Position numbers and translations under genes: made by a program. Positions 9,469 through 17,988 of a stretch of DNA of 42,687 nt are shown here, one piece after another (position 1 is the stretch's first letter; each line of letters opens with the position of its first letter). Below the pieces are notes generated by a model. That model ran no database searches, was not told the origin of the DNA, and worked only from the letters and a program-made list of their open reading frames with translations. The stretch spans positions 1 to 42,687 of the IMG/VR virus record IMGVR_UViG_3300017424_000002; one strand, written 5' to 3'. This DNA is from a virus.

Positions 9469-9781
9469 TCATCCCCGCCATCTGCAACGCTTCCGCCATC
9501 TTGCCTGCATCGTTGATCCAGTGCCGGCCGGTTTCGAGGTGGCGCTTCAACATTCTTTGGCACCCCATCATTGCATCAAATCGCTCTATCTCAGTGCCTT
9601 TGGCGCCGGGTCCACCGCCGGGCAATTGCTTGCGCACGCCATCCTGCATCAGTCGAACGATCGCGCGGCGGCAATCCTTCTCGCTGGCGAACAACCCCTG
9701 TGCAGTCAGGTAACGCTTGGCATCTGGACCGCTGCGGATCATGCAGGCGTCTTCGATCTGCTCTTGTGTTGCGGGAATCAT
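9449..9781 (-). CDS. Hypothetical protein (last gene of the embedded minus cassette)
   Basis: 110 aa from the internal ATG (MIPATQEQIEDAC...), which overlaps the upstream stop (ATGA). Confidence 0.55.
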   Translation of the reverse strand: MIPATQEQIEDACMIRSGPDAKRYLTAQGLFASEKDCRRAIVRLMQDGVRKQLPGGGPGAKGTEIERFDAMMGCQRMLKRHLETGRHWINDAGKMAEALQMAGMITTPVL

Positions 9782-12245: not shown

Positions 12246-12592
12246 TCGACCCGCAAGACCTGCTGCGGCTGGCGGTCTACGATAAGACTGACCGCGAAAT
12301 CAAAGTTGGTGACGTGCTGAAGGTGTACCATTTCACCGGCGCTCGCTGGCGGAAGCGGTATTTCATGTACAAGCAAGTCGTATCTGAAGTCACCCTTGGC
12401 AAAGATGCCAATGCAAGACGGTATCTGCTCGTTTCGCATCTCAATATGAAGCCAGCCGATGGCCGCGATGGCGGATGTTATCTTGCACTTGACGGACAGT
12501 CTTTAGCGGATGTCGAGATCGTGCAGGGCCTTGATTGGCATCATGATCGCGCCCGCGCCCACTCCACCAAGGATACAAGCAATGTCGGATGA
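12242..12592 (+). CDS. Hypothetical protein
   Basis: 116 aa with an ATGA overlap with the upstream gene. Confidence 0.55.
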   Translation: MIDPQDLLRLAVYDKTDREIKVGDVLKVYHFTGARWRKRYFMYKQVVSEVTLGKDANARRYLLVSHLNMKPADGRDGGCYLALDGQSLADVEIVQGLDWHHDRARAHSTKDTSNVG

Positions 12593-13088
12593 TGTGACGC
12601 TACTGCCGTGCCCGTTTTGTGGCAGCAAGCCATTGCTTTTAGGCCTGAAAGCGCCGGAGTTTTGGGTGTCATGCCCGAAGATCGGTTGCAAGGCTGGCAC
12701 GGAAGCATTCGGCGGCAAAAACAAGGCCATTGCCGTTTGGAACCGCCGCGTCACCCCAGCGCCAGATAGTGAGAAGCTGCGGGATGCGCTGGTCGAGGCT
12801 CGCAATGCCCCAATGATCGATCACAGCGGGCAAAAGCGCGGCGTCTATGACGTGCTTGATCGCTTAATTGCCGCCACCCCATCGCCAGATAGCGGTGAGA
12901 GGATGCGGGAGGCGCGACCTGCTGAAAAAGGCAGCTTTACGCCTAATTCCGCCCCCAATTCCGACCAACGCGTCCGCGCTCGTTTTCTTGTGCGCAAGGC
13001 ATTTAATGAGTGGGACGGCTCCGGCTCTTTCCACGATTTGATAGCTGATAGCATGGTCGATTTTGCCCTACAGGAGTCGGCACGATGA
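12582..13088 (+). CDS. Lar-like restriction-alleviation zinc-ribbon domain fused to an unknown extension of about 100 aa
   Basis: 168 aa from the ATG after SD AAGGA. The N-terminus LLPCPFCGSKP...WVSCPKIGCKAGT...KNKAIAVWNRR matches the Lar family pattern. Confidence 0.5.
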   Translation: MSDDVTLLPCPFCGSKPLLLGLKAPEFWVSCPKIGCKAGTEAFGGKNKAIAVWNRRVTPAPDSEKLRDALVEARNAPMIDHSGQKRGVYDVLDRLIAATPSPDSGERMREARPAEKGSFTPNSAPNSDQRVRARFLVRKAFNEWDGSGSFHDLIADSMVDFALQESAR

Positions 13089-14134
13089 CCCCTGCAACGG
13101 ACGCCGCAACCCGCGCGCGTGACATCGCAATCAAGCACGCACTTCCCGGCATCTACGACGGGATTTCAACCCATGCCACACGTCGCGGCGATGCAGATGG
13201 TCGCCCGTACATGGTGGCTCTGCGCGAAGCCATCACCGAAGCGGCCAGCCAGCCGCGCGAGGGGGATGGGCGTACTTACCCCGAACTCCTTTCCTCCGCA
13301 GAGCAGAAAGCCGTTTTGGAGCGCGCAGAGCGGCTGTGGAAGGATTTACAGGCGAATAATCTCGGCGGCTTCTCCGGCATTAACCGGCCGTTCTATATCG
13401 TAGCTGAGTTCAAATCTGTGATCGAGCAGTTTGGCCATCGCGATGTCGGCCTGCGGTGGTCGAAGGATGATCTAGACGCAGCAGCCCTCACCCAGCGACC
13501 GCCCGAACAGGCGGGGGCGGTGCCGGCGGGGTGGAAGCTCGTGCCGGTAGAGCCGACAGAAGAGCAAATCTGGGAAGCTTTGCGCACTGGGATCGGCATG
13601 CAATCAATCTACCGCGCCATGCTCTCCGCCGCCCCGACGCCACCGGATGCGGGGCCGGGGGAGATACCCGCCGGGATGGTGCGGTGGGATGGCCGATACG
13701 GCCCGCCACGTGACGTGGATCACGGCAAGCCCGTCATGCGGCGCAATGGCGAAATGACGGGAACGCCGGTGACGGGCAATGTCTGGTTGCACCTCGCGTC
13801 TCACCCCGGCGCCGACATCATCGCCTACACCCCCAAAGCACCCCCACAGACGCCACCGGATGCGGGGATCGGCAGCGATGGGGCGAGGGAGAACTTCCCG
13901 TTCCCGGTAGAGGGCACTCACGAGTATCTGGCGGGCAAACTGCGGGGCGAGGCGTTCCTACTGTCGGACAGCGTGGACGGGCATCGCAAGCGCATTGACG
14001 TGCGGACCATGGAAAAGGTCGAGATGCCGCGCGACGTGGCCGTCTTGATTGGCGCGATGGACCGTGCCGCCAAGCTGATGCGGGAAGCTGCTGACGCCCT
14101 CGCCACCCAGCCCGGCGATGGAGGGCAATCATGA
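13085..14134 (+). CDS. Hypothetical protein (349 aa)
   Basis: Long ORF with genome-typical codon bias and ATGA overlaps at both ends. A 19-bp direct repeat (13636..13654 and 13849..13867) encodes TPPDAG twice. Confidence 0.6.
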   Translation: MTPATDAATRARDIAIKHALPGIYDGISTHATRRGDADGRPYMVALREAITEAASQPREGDGRTYPELLSSAEQKAVLERAERLWKDLQANNLGGFSGINRPFYIVAEFKSVIEQFGHRDVGLRWSKDDLDAAALTQRPPEQAGAVPAGWKLVPVEPTEEQIWEALRTGIGMQSIYRAMLSAAPTPPDAGPGEIPAGMVRWDGRYGPPRDVDHGKPVMRRNGEMTGTPVTGNVWLHLASHPGADIIAYTPKAPPQTPPDAGIGSDGARENFPFPVEGTHEYLAGKLRGEAFLLSDSVDGHRKRIDVRTMEKVEMPRDVAVLIGAMDRAAKLMREAADALATQPGDGGQS

Positions 14135-14556
14135 CCGATGTGGAGTGGCGGAACACGAAGAAGCAGCGCGAGGCGTTGCGGGCGATGTTTAACGGTCGTT
14201 GTGCTTATTGCGGCTGCGATCTGGGCAAGGCCATGCACGCGGACCATGTCGAGCCGGTCGGGCACAAGACGCGCGATCCATGGTCACAGCCGCTGCCGCC
14301 GGAGGAAAGGGGCTTCTACAAGCCCGAGCGCAACGTCGTCGGCAATATGATGCCCGCCTGCGCACCCTGTAACCTGCACAAGGGCGGCTACACCTTGGAG
14401 GGTTGGCGGACATACATCGCCCGGTCCGCCGAGATCGTCCGCAAGCAGACTTCCACCTTTCGTGCCGGCGAGCGATTCGGGGTGATCGCGGTCCGTGACG
14501 CGCCGGTCGTCTTTCATTTCGAGCGCGCCCACATCCAAGGAAATTCCCATGACTGA
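14131..14556 (+). CDS. HNH endonuclease
   Basis: 141 aa with CAYCGCDLGKAMHADHVEPV...ACAPCNLHKG. Its GC content matches the genome, unlike the HNH at 3928. Confidence 0.8.
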   Translation: MTDVEWRNTKKQREALRAMFNGRCAYCGCDLGKAMHADHVEPVGHKTRDPWSQPLPPEERGFYKPERNVVGNMMPACAPCNLHKGGYTLEGWRTYIARSAEIVRKQTSTFRAGERFGVIAVRDAPVVFHFERAHIQGNSHD

Positions 14557-15540: not shown

Positions 15541-15837
15541 ATGCTCCTGACCCGCTACCAGCAAATCCCCGACAGCGGACACCCCCTGACTGAGGATTTC
15601 GCCGAGCAGCTGTACGTCAGGACACCGCCCCATCAGTGGCCCGCGGGTATGCGCCGATCCGGGGTATGGGAAACCGAGCCGGTCGAGGTGCGCGAGGCTT
15701 TCCGGGAGCGGGCAAGGCGATGGATGGCGGGGGATTTGAGTGCGGGGCCTTGGGTGCGGGGCCTTGGGTGCGGTGACGCTGCCGTAGGAGGTTCCGGTGA
15801 TCGCTTGAGGCTGGTTACGCCCGCGGCCGGCATCTAA
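15541..15837 (+). CDS. Hypothetical protein (C-terminus created by a 14-bp tandem duplication)
   Basis: 98 aa with SD GAGGG. It is the last gene of the plus arm. Confidence 0.55.
   Translation: MLLTRYQQIPDSGHPLTEDFAEQLYVRTPPHQWPAGMRRSGVWETEPVEVREAFRERARRWMAGDLSAGPWVRGLGCGDAAVGGSGDRLRLVTPAAGI
15740..15773. repeat. Tandem duplication of the 14-mer GTGCGGGGCCTTGG (about 2.4 copies)
   Basis: Units lie at 15740..15753 and 15754..15767, with a partial unit at 15768..15773. The unit length is not a multiple of 3. Confidence 0.9.
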
Positions 15838-16241
15838 TCCTCGTCACTTCCCGCCAGCATAGGCCGGCAGCGTCAATGCTGCTGACCGGTCCTTAGTCCG
15901 GTCGGGGATGGCTTCTACTCCACCCAGCGGACAAGCGCTCCCGCACGTAGTTCTTTGCGTCGCTCGCAGCCCACATTCCCTGCCACATTTCACCTTGACA
16001 GGCAAGCGGATGGTTGTGGCGGCGGGGCGAATCGGGTATGCAAGTGGGGCTGCGGCGCGCAAGCGTTCGGTAGGGAGTCCGTTTAAACCCCAGCAGGTGA
16101 TGTGGCTAAGACAGGTGCCACGCCGAAGACCTGACATTAGCAGCATCTTCACTGACCGGATAGGAGGTCAGGTAGGCGCGTGAACCGCGTGTAGCTGGGG
16201 CGCTGGCGGTCAGAATAACACGCACCGAGTTTCAGAGGCAG

Positions 16242-16266
16242 GCGGGTTCGACTCCCGCTCGTTGGC
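16242..16266 (+). other. tRNA T-arm/acceptor-like module 1
   Basis: GCGGG-TTCGACT-CCCGC followed by TCGTTGG-C. There is no CCA, and no D or anticodon arm at canonical spacing. Confidence 0.6.
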
Positions 16267-16284
16267 CGAGATCGTGGTGAAAGA

Positions 16285-16309
16285 CAGGGTTCGAATCCCT
16301 GACTGGGTG
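16285..16309 (+). other. tRNA T-arm/acceptor-like module 2
   Basis: CAGGG-TTCGAAT-CCCTG followed by ACTGGGT-G, then CAA. The best 5' partner is ACCGAGT at 16224..16230 (6/7 pairs). No cloverleaf can be completed. Confidence 0.6.
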
Positions 16310-16368
16310 CAAGCCCTTCGCTAGTGCCCTCGGGGTAGAGGGTGGCCCGCTTGACGTGTCGTAAGGCG

Positions 16369-17988
16369 TCACTTACCCACCACCCCCCGCAGCTTAGGCG
16401 TCTCCGCGATTGGCTGGCCGGCATATTCCCGCAGGCCCCATGCACCGTACTGGCTGATCGGCCCGGTTGCGGCGTAGAGCGTCAATAGGTCGGTCTTGCC
16501 CGCCATGTCCGCGATGAAGGTGCGATAGATCGGCTCCATCAGGGGCGACCGCTGCATCTGCGTGACCAGCGGCAGGCGGTCCGGCCCGACGACGTGCTGC
16601 CCCGCCTCGTAGGTGATGAACCGCTTGCCGTACTTCTTCGCGATGGCGGCGTTCTGGCTGACCGGTCCCGACACGACGCCCTTGGCATAGCCCGCCAGCG
16701 TACCCATCAGCTTGGCCACGTCCGTCTCGCTTGGGTTGGCGTCGAAGAAGCCATGACCGAAGTAGGGGGCTGTAGCCAGCGCGTCGACGCTCGCGGCCAG
16801 ACCGGGGAAAGCCAGCACGACCTCCGCGGTCCACGGATTGTCATTCTGCGTGGCGGCCACCCGCACCAGCTGGCCGGGTCGATCGGCGAACACCTCCGCC
16901 CAGATCTTCATGACCTGGCTGGTCTTCTGCGCGTAACGGTGCAGGCCCGCCTGGAACGGCGTGTCGGCCAGCCCCGCGGCAACGCCTTCGTCCCTGGACT
17001 GCTGTGCCGCACCGAACTGCCAGTTCCAGACCTCGTTCGCTACCTCGACATAGACTTGCCGTCCGGCGGGTATACCGGCCTTGACCAGCGCAGCGGCGCG
17101 GCGGTGATAATCGTCATCGGCATTCCATGGCAGCGTCAGCCATGGCGAAGCACCGACGGCATTCGCCAGTCCAATCTGATATTCCAGCGCGGTCCCATCG
17201 CTGCCGCCGGTTGCATTGACCCCGGCCGTGCCCCGCGTCGCCCAAGTGACCGACTTCGGATTGCCGTTGGCAGTCGTCCAGTCGAGGAAGCGCAGGACAC
17301 TGTATGGCTTTAGGTAGTTCAGCAACTGTGCCGCAAAGACACCCTTCTCCGCCGGCTCGCGACAGTCAATATTGCGGATCGGATCGCTGGCGTCCGTGGC
17401 GTCAAGATTAACCGTCACTGTCTGCATCGGCGTCTTGGTCTTTGGCCATTCGAAGGTGATCGTGCGGGCCGCACTGCTGACGATCCGGCCGGCACTGGCG
17501 ATCGATACCGATCCCTTGCCGGCCCAGGTGCAGCGGGTGGTCGGGCCTTCACCGCGGAAGGCAGCGGCGGGAGGCGTCAGGAAGGCGAGCAGGCCACGAC
17601 CGGTCTTAATCGTGGCGGGCACGCCGCCCCGCAGACGATCCGCCGCAACGTAGCCCCAGCCACCGTTGGGATCGCGCCATTCGAGGATCGCGGCCTGATT
17701 GGCGAACGTCTGCTCTGCCGACCAGTAGGCGATGCCGGCGACATTGATGCCAAGCTTCATGCGCGGTGCCAGCGTAGCCGCACGGTCAAGACGCGCCTGC
17801 TTGGCGCTTGCAGCCACAGCTTCAGCTTTTGCGAAACAGTCGGCGCCGGCCTTCAGCTTGTCCGCGTCACTAGTTTGCGTCTTGGGAATCGCCACCGTGC
17901 CACAGCCGGTGACGGACTGCGCCGCAGCCGGCGTCGCGATCAATGATAAAGCCGCGATCAGCAGAATGCCCATCTTGCGCATTGTCAT
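16369..17988 (-). CDS. Secreted glycoside-hydrolase-like protein (clan GH-A-type NE motif) with Sec signal peptide
   Basis: 539 aa. The N-terminus MTMRKMGILLIAALSLIATPAAAQS is a signal peptide with an AxA site. The central block YVEVANEVWNWQF resembles the acid/base NE motif of TIM-barrel glycosidases. It is the last gene of the minus arm. Confidence 0.5.
   Translation of the reverse strand: MTMRKMGILLIAALSLIATPAAAQSVTGCGTVAIPKTQTSDADKLKAGADCFAKAEAVAASAKQARLDRAATLAPRMKLGINVAGIAYWSAEQTFANQAAILEWRDPNGGWGYVAADRLRGGVPATIKTGRGLLAFLTPPAAAFRGEGPTTRCTWAGKGSVSIASAGRIVSSAARTITFEWPKTKTPMQTVTVNLDATDASDPIRNIDCREPAEKGVFAAQLLNYLKPYSVLRFLDWTTANGNPKSVTWATRGTAGVNATGGSDGTALEYQIGLANAVGASPWLTLPWNADDDYHRRAAALVKAGIPAGRQVYVEVANEVWNWQFGAAQQSRDEGVAAGLADTPFQAGLHRYAQKTSQVMKIWAEVFADRPGQLVRVAATQNDNPWTAEVVLAFPGLAASVDALATAPYFGHGFFDANPSETDVAKLMGTLAGYAKGVVSGPVSQNAAIAKKYGKRFITYEAGQHVVGPDRLPLVTQMQRSPLMEPIYRTFIADMAGKTDLLTLYAATGPISQYGAWGLREYAGQPIAETPKLRGVVGK

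Follow-up and report, generated by a model that had tools for sequence, protein, structure and literature searches.

The DNA analysed here, referred to as the window, is the 42,687-nucleotide IMG/VR virus record IMGVR_UViG_3300017424_000002. Its two transcription arms converge on a gap of 531 bases (15838-16368), and the last ~140 bases of this gap very probably encode a member of a widespread family of structured RNAs that is absent from Rfam 15. The element lies on the + strand, with a core at 16228-16347 and a terminal hairpin reaching 16371, and specifies an RNA of ~120-145 nucleotides (nt). Comparison across many contigs establishes that the family exists, on which strand it lies, which helices it forms and that it is associated with tRNA genes of the same orientation. 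An earlier reading of the window from its letters alone (hereafter, the original prediction) had as its first suggestion a structured RNA of unrecognised class with tRNA-mimic modules. The covarying + strand family described below bears this out: the suggestion is right in kind and wrong in anatomy.

The RNA family and the evidence for its fold

The original prediction had singled out two near-consensus tRNA T arms, 26 nt apart, in a gap without a credible gene, and both observations stand. The first T-arm hairpin, GCGGG-TTCGACT-CCCGC, occupies 16242-16258 and the second, CAGGG-TTCGAAT-CCCTG, occupies 16285-16301. In the 42.7 kb of the window GGTTCRANTCC occurs at these two places and nowhere else, both times on the + strand; shuffling predicts 0.18 occurrences (0 of 100 shuffles reach two). 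The gap is bounded by the end of a + arm open reading frame (ORF) at 15837 and by the stop codon, at 16369-16371, of a convergent minus-strand ORF of 539 amino acids (aa). Three ORFs of more than 60 aa inside it have flat G+C contents over the three codon positions (GC1/2/3, 0.58-0.64), unlike the flanking genes (GC3 0.65-0.78, GC2 0.40-0.57), and the gap can therefore be said to hold no credible gene. It had also been noted that neither T arm could be completed into a 70-90-nt cloverleaf. In agreement with this, ARAGORN, run over the whole window including its modes for transfer-messenger RNA (tmRNA), called 0 tRNAs and 0 tmRNAs, nothing in Rfam 15 reached its gathering score in the window, and Rfam searches at E up to 10 over 15600-16600 gave chance-level matches only. 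No tRNA genes are present in the window.

A BLASTN search against cultured phages returned one real match, 74 nt across both T arms, which falls in a 944-nt unannotated gap of Pseudomonas phage Touem01. Pattern scans designed from this match recovered 10 IMG/VR contigs with the first pattern, 6 further IMG/VR members with a pattern that left out the T loop (all with the same T loop and covarying stems) and 37 loci in metagenomes; slight relaxation of the pattern brought the IMG/VR contigs to 63 altogether. The total comes to 103 loci with 84 unique cores, from unrelated phage and metagenome contigs of 5-172 kb and from very different samples (soil, freshwater, marine, digester and gut phage sequences). 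The position of the element differs among phage contigs, no protein family recurs beside the RNA among the carrier loci compared, and the flanks of the window have nothing in common with those of other carriers. The 5' module of the carriers, made up of the hairpins H1, Hm and H2 described below, is 66-100% identical to that of the window. E. coli genomes and plasmids gave no match to the element. Two looser patterns, used in viral and genome scans, listed matches that were nearly all chance occurrences in coding sequence, with only L206 among them being a family member. Literature searches, by topic and with sequence strings, yielded no account of the RNA, a 2023 catalogue of ~10,000 viral candidate RNAs lying outside this comparison.

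A covariance model, R1, was built after alignment and RNAalifold analysis. On the window R1 gave a single match, 16228-16392 (+), at 138.6 bits. Its scores were 76-146 bits for the 32 standard members and 27-125 bits for 44 of the searched IMG/VR loci. On 100 control loci that had been collected for another motif, R1 found one true member, the remaining matches scoring no more than 22 bits and falling on single T arms or on tandem tRNAs. In the R1 alignment 93.8% of cells are paired. Cells changed on both sides number 150, compared with 43.5 +/- 5.1 after column shuffling (150 is reached in 0 of 500), and sliding the partners by 1-3 columns leaves a count of 7-20. Four helices, H1, H2, H3 and H4, show strong compensatory covariation with several pair types each, and a fifth, nearly invariant hairpin, Hm, covaries at one pair (35-54). 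The compensatory changes, which fall in non-tRNA helices across 84 cores, show that this particular fold is under selection.

The + strand is also the strand on which the conserved loops make sense. GNRA and UUCG tetraloops and T loops appear only in the + strand reading of the element, and a canonical same-strand intrinsic terminator lies within ~50 nt past the conserved GGCC at the end of the core in 7 of 32 members, Touem01 included. ARAGORN placed tRNA genes within 1.5 kb of the RNA at 22 of the 84 unique loci, every one on the same strand and none on the opposite strand; at 14 loci they lie within 300 nt. The RNA may be embedded in tRNA arrays (L482, L484), start 6-9 nt past a tRNA 3' end (L314, L449) or be followed by a tRNA within ~30 nt (L304, L465). 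At two loci (L303 4929-5004 and L471 2685-2760) ARAGORN also predicted, ~1 kb past the 3' end of the RNA and on its strand, an amber-suppressor-like tRNA with the anticodon CUA, which it labelled tRNA-Pyl.

Anatomy of the RNA

The RNA opens with a 5' joiner, AGUUUCAGAGGCA (16228-16240, +), ending in a conserved A-G-n-G-C-A of which the GCA is nearly invariant before H1 (alignments A2 and A4). Position 16228 is the putative 5' boundary, set by conservation, the sequence further upstream being unconserved. H1, the first T-arm-like hairpin (GGCGGG / UUCGACU / CCCGCU; 16241-16259, +), has a covarying stem, with pair 17-29 seen as GC 18 times, CG 9, UA 4 and AU 1. Its loop is UUCRAnU in 69 of 69 unique members tallied; two of the scans required this loop, yet the 6 members from the loop-free pattern carry it as well. 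The next hairpin, Hm (UUGGCC / GAGAUCGU / GGUGAA; 16262-16281, +), was found by RNAalifold and in single-sequence folds. The 26-nt stretch in which it lies had been taken for a spacer between the T arms and proves to be the most conserved part of the RNA. Its outer pair 35-54 is U-A in 27, C-G in 22, U-G in 10, C-A in 7 and another combination in 3 of 69 unique members. In sequence Hm is similar to the D arm of tRNA-Ser. Its folding as a D arm with GGA/GGC closure was considered and rejected, as closure of this type is unconserved and a local hairpin with the covarying pair 35-54 fits better.

H2, the second T arm (CAGGG / UUCGAAU / CCCUG; 16285-16301, +), has four of five pairs changed on both sides, pair 65-80 being AU 14 times, CG 7, GC 6 and UA 5. 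Its loop follows the T-loop consensus in most members and was required by no search pattern. H3 (GGGU / GCAA / GCCC; 16305-16316, +) is a short tetraloop-capped helix in which 4 of 4 pairs covary; its loops are mostly GNRA or UUCG, and it is missing in a few short variants (L291, L297, L002). The J3/4 joiner UUCGCUAGU (16317-16325, +), with the family consensus UAAGnnAGU and with AGU and UAAG/UUAG conserved in alignments A4 and A6, leads into H4 (GCCCUC / GGGGUA / GAGGGU; 16326-16343, +). H4 is a D-arm-like hairpin in which 6 of 6 pairs covary. Its loop ends in GGUA, like G18 G19 U20 A21 of the tRNA D loop, with GGUA or GGUG found across the family and the GG in 50 of 55 members scored. The GGCC that follows (16344-16347, +) is present in 52 of 69 unique members and may pair with the GGCC inside Hm, the 5' copy having been fixed by the searches. 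Across the family the modules are spaced as H1 (5-6 bp), 2 nt, Hm, 3 nt, H2, 3 nt, H3 (4-5 bp), UAAGnnAGU, H4 (5-6 bp) and GGCC. In the window the terminal hairpin H5 (UGACG / UGUCGUAAGG / CGUCA; 16352-16371, +) completes the RNA, its last 3 nt being the complement of the stop codon of the 539-aa ORF. Hairpins of this type (UGAC-stem-CGUAAG-stem) also occur in L007 and L307, and elsewhere different terminal hairpins or an intrinsic terminator are found.

These helices replace the earlier picture of two acceptor/T-arm minihelices: the modules belong to a single fold, in which they follow each other in a permuted, tRNA-like order. The sequence past the second T arm, formerly read as an acceptor strand, forms its own covarying tetraloop hairpin, H3. 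The proposed 5' acceptor partners did not hold up either: a 7-mer pairing with CGUUGGC lies upstream in 12 of 31 members, compared with 7.9 +/- 2.4 after shuffling (a count of 12 is reached in 39 of 500 shuffles), and its distances are scattered. Two other helices were tried and rejected. A hairpin just upstream of the RNA, H0, was seen in about half of the members and was inconsistent, and the long-range helix GGGGCGCUGGCGG / UCGCUAGUGCCCU in the minimum-free-energy fold of the window competes with the conserved H4 and is absent in other members.

A longer subfamily (L288/L308, L298/L311, L299, L302, L303/L315, L454, L471) keeps H1-Hm-H2 and has a different 3' domain, with the conserved stretches GGUGAGACAAAUGGCyCGG and CGUUAArCG and a hairpin with the loop (C/A)GGAAU. 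This arrangement suggests that H1-Hm-H2 may be a portable 5' module. Degenerate second Hm-like copies lie upstream of the RNA in L007 (~95 nt before H1; GGUUGGCCACCGAUGAUCUGGUG) and in L011 (~70 nt before H1; CGGCCGAGGUGGAUCAG), which hints at a partial module duplication in some lineages. In Touem01 (L001, accession PP179325, where the RNA lies at ~13990-14170 on the + strand) the copy stands at the 3' end of the 944-nt gap (L001 2256-3199) with a strong terminator after it. The same gap, which is matched by no other phage record, contains a further T-arm-like hairpin at L001 2614-2630.

Resemblance to known RNAs, proposed function and rival explanations

The order of the helices can be mapped onto that of a class II tRNA permuted so as to open between the D and anticodon arms. 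In this mapping H1 corresponds to the anticodon arm, Hm to the long variable arm, H2 to the T arm, H3 to a closed acceptor stem, the joiner to positions 8-9 and H4 to the D arm. The likeness lies in several features: two hairpins match the T-arm consensus, with GG/CC closing pairs and UUCRAnU loops; a hairpin like a long variable arm stands between two hairpins of 5 bp with 7-nt loops; the D-type loop ends in GGUA; and tRNA genes lie adjacent in the same orientation. The G53-C61 closing pair and UUCRAnn loop of a tRNA T arm are found in both H1 and H2, as a GG-UUCGAnU-CC conserved in the family. In several members ARAGORN called tRNA-Ser(cga) or tRNA-Leu(caa) by forcing H1 into the anticodon arm, Hm into the long variable arm and H2 into the T arm, and the acceptor stems of those calls are unconserved by partner count and sequence inspection. 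The RNA differs from class II tRNAs in its permuted order and in having neither an acceptor stem formed from its ends nor a CCA. The tRNA model RF00005 gave no match over 15600-16600 at E up to 10, and a cloverleaf with a 7-bp acceptor stem was not found there. The H1 loops, UUCGA(U/C/G/A)U and UUCAA(U/C)U, usually have a pyrimidine at the equivalent of position 37 and do not show the U33 with purine 37 expected of an anticodon loop.

A comparable layout is known from YrlA, whose tRNA-like domain runs T arm, capped stem and D arm and forms a non-chargeable mimic with a variable-arm-like hairpin first; Y RNAs are known in phages (PMC4201824). As a positive control, the Rfam YrlA model (RF02553) detected its RNA at the Ro60 locus of mycobacteriophage Bxz1 with 32.5 bits (E = 1.7e-4), the alignment comprising the T arm, the capped stem, UA and a D arm with a loop ending in GGUA. 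The YrlA order of variable arm, T arm, capped acceptor stem-loop and D arm corresponds to Hm, H2, H3 and H4, and the H4 loop ends in GGUA as it does in Bxz1. This is a resemblance of layout and not evidence of homology. The YrlA model gave no match over 15600-16600 at E up to 10, and R1 on the Bxz1 YrlA locus found the T arm only (11.5 bits). YrlA is further marked by a Ro60 gene on the same strand within ~4 kb. Pfam and PHROGs scans found no TROVE/Ro60 domain in 29 ORFs of the window, both ~500-aa neighbouring ORFs included, and the carriers have no recurring protein neighbour. The possibility that the 539-aa and 474-aa neighbours are Ro60 and RtcB was rejected, Pfam finding no TROVE and the second having a GDSL-like domain. 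The RNA also differs from YrlA in that no closing stem of its 5' and 3' ends was found, in its extra T-loop hairpin H1 and nearly invariant Hm, and in its linkers of 3 and 9 nt versus 0 and 2 nt.

Among RNAs that accompany phage tRNAs, T4 species 1 and 2 RNAs (rnaC, rnaD) and PAK_P3 ncRNA2 are likewise 120-210 nt long, with same-strand tRNA neighbours and undescribed functions, and a T arm is present in both rnaC and ncRNA2. The PAK_P3 RNAs are processed from longer transcripts and have no transcription start of their own (PMC10914365). As members of the family, rnaC and rnaD were rejected, R1 matching the T arm only in rnaC (13.8 bits), and so were PAK_P3 ncRNA1 and ncRNA2, the latter being without the UCGYUGGCCGAG hairpin. 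GOLLD and ROOL are several-fold larger than this RNA and of another architecture. Rfam offered no match for the RNA: models of GOLLD, ROOL, HEARO, RNase P and group I introns gave nothing at gathering score over the whole window and nothing at E up to 10 over 15600-16600. Both GOLLD and ROOL are phage-associated structured RNAs, often near tRNA genes and of undescribed function (PMC5737381), and both form RNA-only assemblies (PMC12286853). A tmRNA resembles the RNA in carrying a T arm within a molecule that is not a tRNA, and the RNA differs in having no acceptor/CCA, no tag reading frame and no pseudoknots; besides the negative ARAGORN result, no member of the Rfam tmRNA clan matched 15600-16600 at E up to 10. 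Permuted gene order does exist among tmRNAs, in the two-piece forms.

We propose, as the best supported of the readings considered but one held in even balance, that the RNA adopts a circularly permuted class II tRNA-like fold with a capped acceptor and acts in trans as a tRNA mimic. The mechanism by which it would do so, as a mimic or decoy, is offered tentatively. Transcription of the RNA would come last in the early (+) arm of this phage and would accompany that of tRNA arrays in other phages, and host tRNA-processing nucleases would trim the product. A tRNA-like elbow would arise from docking of the H2 T loop onto the GG in the H4 loop. Because the acceptor end is capped, the folded RNA could not be aminoacylated and would act by engaging a factor that recognises tRNA shape. 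Such a partner, encoded by host or phage, might read the T arm, the elbow or the shape of a long variable arm, and the RNA might serve either as a decoy for a tRNA-targeting enzyme or as a handle recruiting a tRNA-binding protein. That Hm is nearly invariant in carriers with no detectable flanking protein in common speaks for a partner that is sequence-specific and shared by many bacteria. Taken to its full extent, the proposal describes a portable, Ro-independent, acceptor-capped permuted class II tRNA mimic of many phage lineages, which tRNA arrays would express and which would sequester a tRNA-recognising factor as a decoy or sponge; in this form we consider it speculative and somewhat doubtful. 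Candidate targets of a decoy would be a tRNA-cleaving defence nuclease or a reader of the T arm or long variable arm such as TruB, TrmA or SerRS.

The T loop in H2 and the GG in the H4 loop occur together in 47 of 55 members, are both lacking in 3 and are mixed in 5 (2 + 3), and in L009 the two loops are Watson-Crick complementary instead (GGCA / UGCC). This co-occurrence would be consistent with an elbow-like loop-loop contact, the counts being uncorrected for phylogeny and reflecting few independent events. That limit is one of several points that weigh against the proposed tRNA mimic. The search patterns themselves account for some of the invariance seen in Hm. Near the window's copy no sigma-70-like promoter or terminator was found, and no obvious tRNA-related enzyme is encoded among the tested ORFs of the window. 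In all its members the family is an RNA predicted from sequence alone. The mapping onto a permuted tRNA is also imperfect, as the joiner before H4 has 9 nt versus 2, H3 has 4-5 bp versus 7, H4 has 5-6 bp versus 3-4, and the H1 loop is of the T type and not of the anticodon type.

The main rival explanation, which we consider unlikely, is a cis-acting punctuation or stability element that directs processing by RNase P, Z or E or blocks 3' exonucleases and has no function as a free RNA. The placement of the RNA favours it: copies often stand at transcript ends just before intrinsic terminators or directly beside tRNAs, the window copy ends the + arm, and CUGACAGCCGGGAAAGACCGGC, a motif that follows the RNA in many members, elsewhere sits 5-6 nt before the first tRNA of an array. 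Yet a processing signal or an exonuclease block needs far less than five helices that covary or are invariant and a near-invariant hairpin of 22 nt, and 66-100% identity of the 5' module across carriers with no detectable flanking protein in common points to a sequence-specific partner. Another rival is a partner of the Y-RNA type, with the RNA being a YrlA relative, either Ro60-independent or dependent on a host Ro60, that tethers a host RNA-decay or repair factor. The layout of T arm, capped stem and D arm as in YrlA, the GGUA loop end and the existence of phage Y RNAs (PMC4201824) speak for such a relative. We regard it as improbable, since the YrlA model does not match the window, R1 matches only the T arm of Bxz1, the tested ORFs contain no TROVE, no neighbour recurs, no closing stem was found and the upstream hairpins are unconserved. 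GNRA loops and T loops are common tertiary-contact modules, and they would be merely that if the RNA were a catalytic or self-assembling ornate RNA, such as a ribozyme or a multimeric scaffold like ROOL or GOLLD. The latter two are indeed phage-associated, near tRNAs and form RNA-only assemblies (PMC5737381; PMC12286853), but this explanation is improbable to the same degree: no Rfam ribozyme, GOLLD or ROOL model matches, the RNA is small (~120 nt), and the tRNA-like order and the D-loop-type GGUA are left unexplained.

It is very improbable that the element represents degenerate tRNA remnants or pseudogenes, or a genuine permuted tRNA gene maturing to a chargeable tRNA. Against the near-consensus T arms, the likeness of Hm to a tRNA-Ser D arm and the tRNA-Ser(cga) and tRNA-Leu(caa) calls in several members stand the negative ARAGORN and Rfam tRNA results in the window, the unconserved acceptor pairings of those calls, the compensatory changes in non-tRNA helices and a capped 4-5-bp "acceptor" that could give no CCA end. 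Remnants of a captured host tRNA or tmRNA, an option raised in the original prediction, fit poorly for the further reason that carriers with no detectable flanking protein in common keep the element with compensatory changes, and no E. coli match was found. A site acting at the DNA level was another of its options. The ends of tRNA genes on the 3' side are common att cores, and the element lies where two transcription arms converge, as might suit an attP with host tRNA 3' fragments or a packaging or replication site. We give such a site the smallest probability of all. The first T arm is not followed by an acceptor strand and CCA, the sequence after the T arm being UCGUUGGCCGAG, and no integrase was found among the 29 ORFs tested with Pfam and PHROGs, as had been anticipated. 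The loops are strand-specific, terminators (7 members) and tRNA genes (22 loci) lie on the same strand, E. coli genomes and plasmids hold no match, and the position of the element differs among phage contigs.

Should the proposed decoy or sponge action hold, the phage tools of counter-defence or translation control would include non-coding tRNA mimics besides tRNAs. Phage tRNA arrays are now regarded as counter-measures to host defences that target tRNAs, and the functions of the non-tRNA RNAs that travel with these arrays (T4 species 1 and 2, the PAK_P3 ncRNAs, GOLLD and ROOL) are undescribed. The combination of acceptor capping and permutation has so far been described for Ro60-associated Y RNAs, and the present family suggests that it may be a more general route to a tRNA mimic excluded from translation. 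The identity of the partner could expose a new point of phage-host conflict around tRNA biology. The RNA is small and sharply defined by covariation, and its presence in one cultured pair, Touem01 on Pseudomonas syringae 7C, makes direct testing feasible.

The upstream 390 nt, neighbouring genes and other motifs

The remainder of the gap, 15838-16227, is a non-coding stretch without an assigned strand, whose ORFs have flat GC1/2/3. It showed no similarity to any fetched related locus or phage record, and it folds somewhat better than shuffled sequence (z = -2.5). Since it is unconserved, and since coding sequence ends 20-45 nt before the first T arm (H1) in L003 and L005, this stretch is placed outside the conserved element. 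The four upstream helices that had been attributed to the same structured locus are all present as written; they fall outside the family and have no counterpart in related loci. Two of them, at 15855-15881 and 15884-15903, are covered by a match to the Twister-P5 ribozyme (RF02684) at 15856-15901 (+), which has 17.6 bits, below the gathering score of 37.6, and E = 0.62. Equivalents of P2 and P4 are present in this match, the P4-like part reading CCGG-UCCUUAGU-CCGG versus CCGG-UCCCAAGC-CCGG in the consensus. The loop is UCCUUAGU and not the conserved CCCAAGC, and the perfect 6-bp helix CAGCAU/AUGCUG would pair bases of the cleavage site. No relatives of 15856-15901 were found in IMG/VR.

The window is a phage genome that encodes a primase-helicase, a helicase, a portal protein, a large terminase, tail proteins and a GH108 endolysin, the portal being only ~30% identical to the best of the phage collection. 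Two products of the early arm, encoded a few genes ahead of the RNA, are a protein with a Lar restriction-alleviation domain (12510-13088, +; E = 1.2e-10) and a small protein that matches HNH and endonuclease VII weakly (14131-14556, +).

The 22-nt motif CUGACAGCCGGGAAAGACCGGC forms the end of the RNA in many family members and stands after the GGCC in L285, L293, L296, L297 and L318. Its hairpin has the loop GAAAGA and a stem that covaries, and the motif has at least 120 exact matches in IMG/VR (loci L321-L440). The T-arm RNA was found in 1 of 100 searched loci with the motif (L333). The motif typically stands 5-6 nt ahead of the leading tRNA in a phage tRNA array. A divergent gene often has its Shine-Dalgarno sequence ~10-20 nt away, and in some cases several degenerate copies of the motif lie in tandem. 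It has no Rfam match and was not found in the literature by sequence string. A hammerhead was considered for CUGACAG...GAAAGAC and rejected by inspection against the hammerhead consensus, core positions G8 and A9 being a misfit and no Rfam ribozyme matching. One phage contig that carries the CUGACAG motif and tRNAs, L331, also has a Twister-P5 ribozyme at 9653-9730 (-), with 42.7 bits and thus above the gathering score of 37.6.

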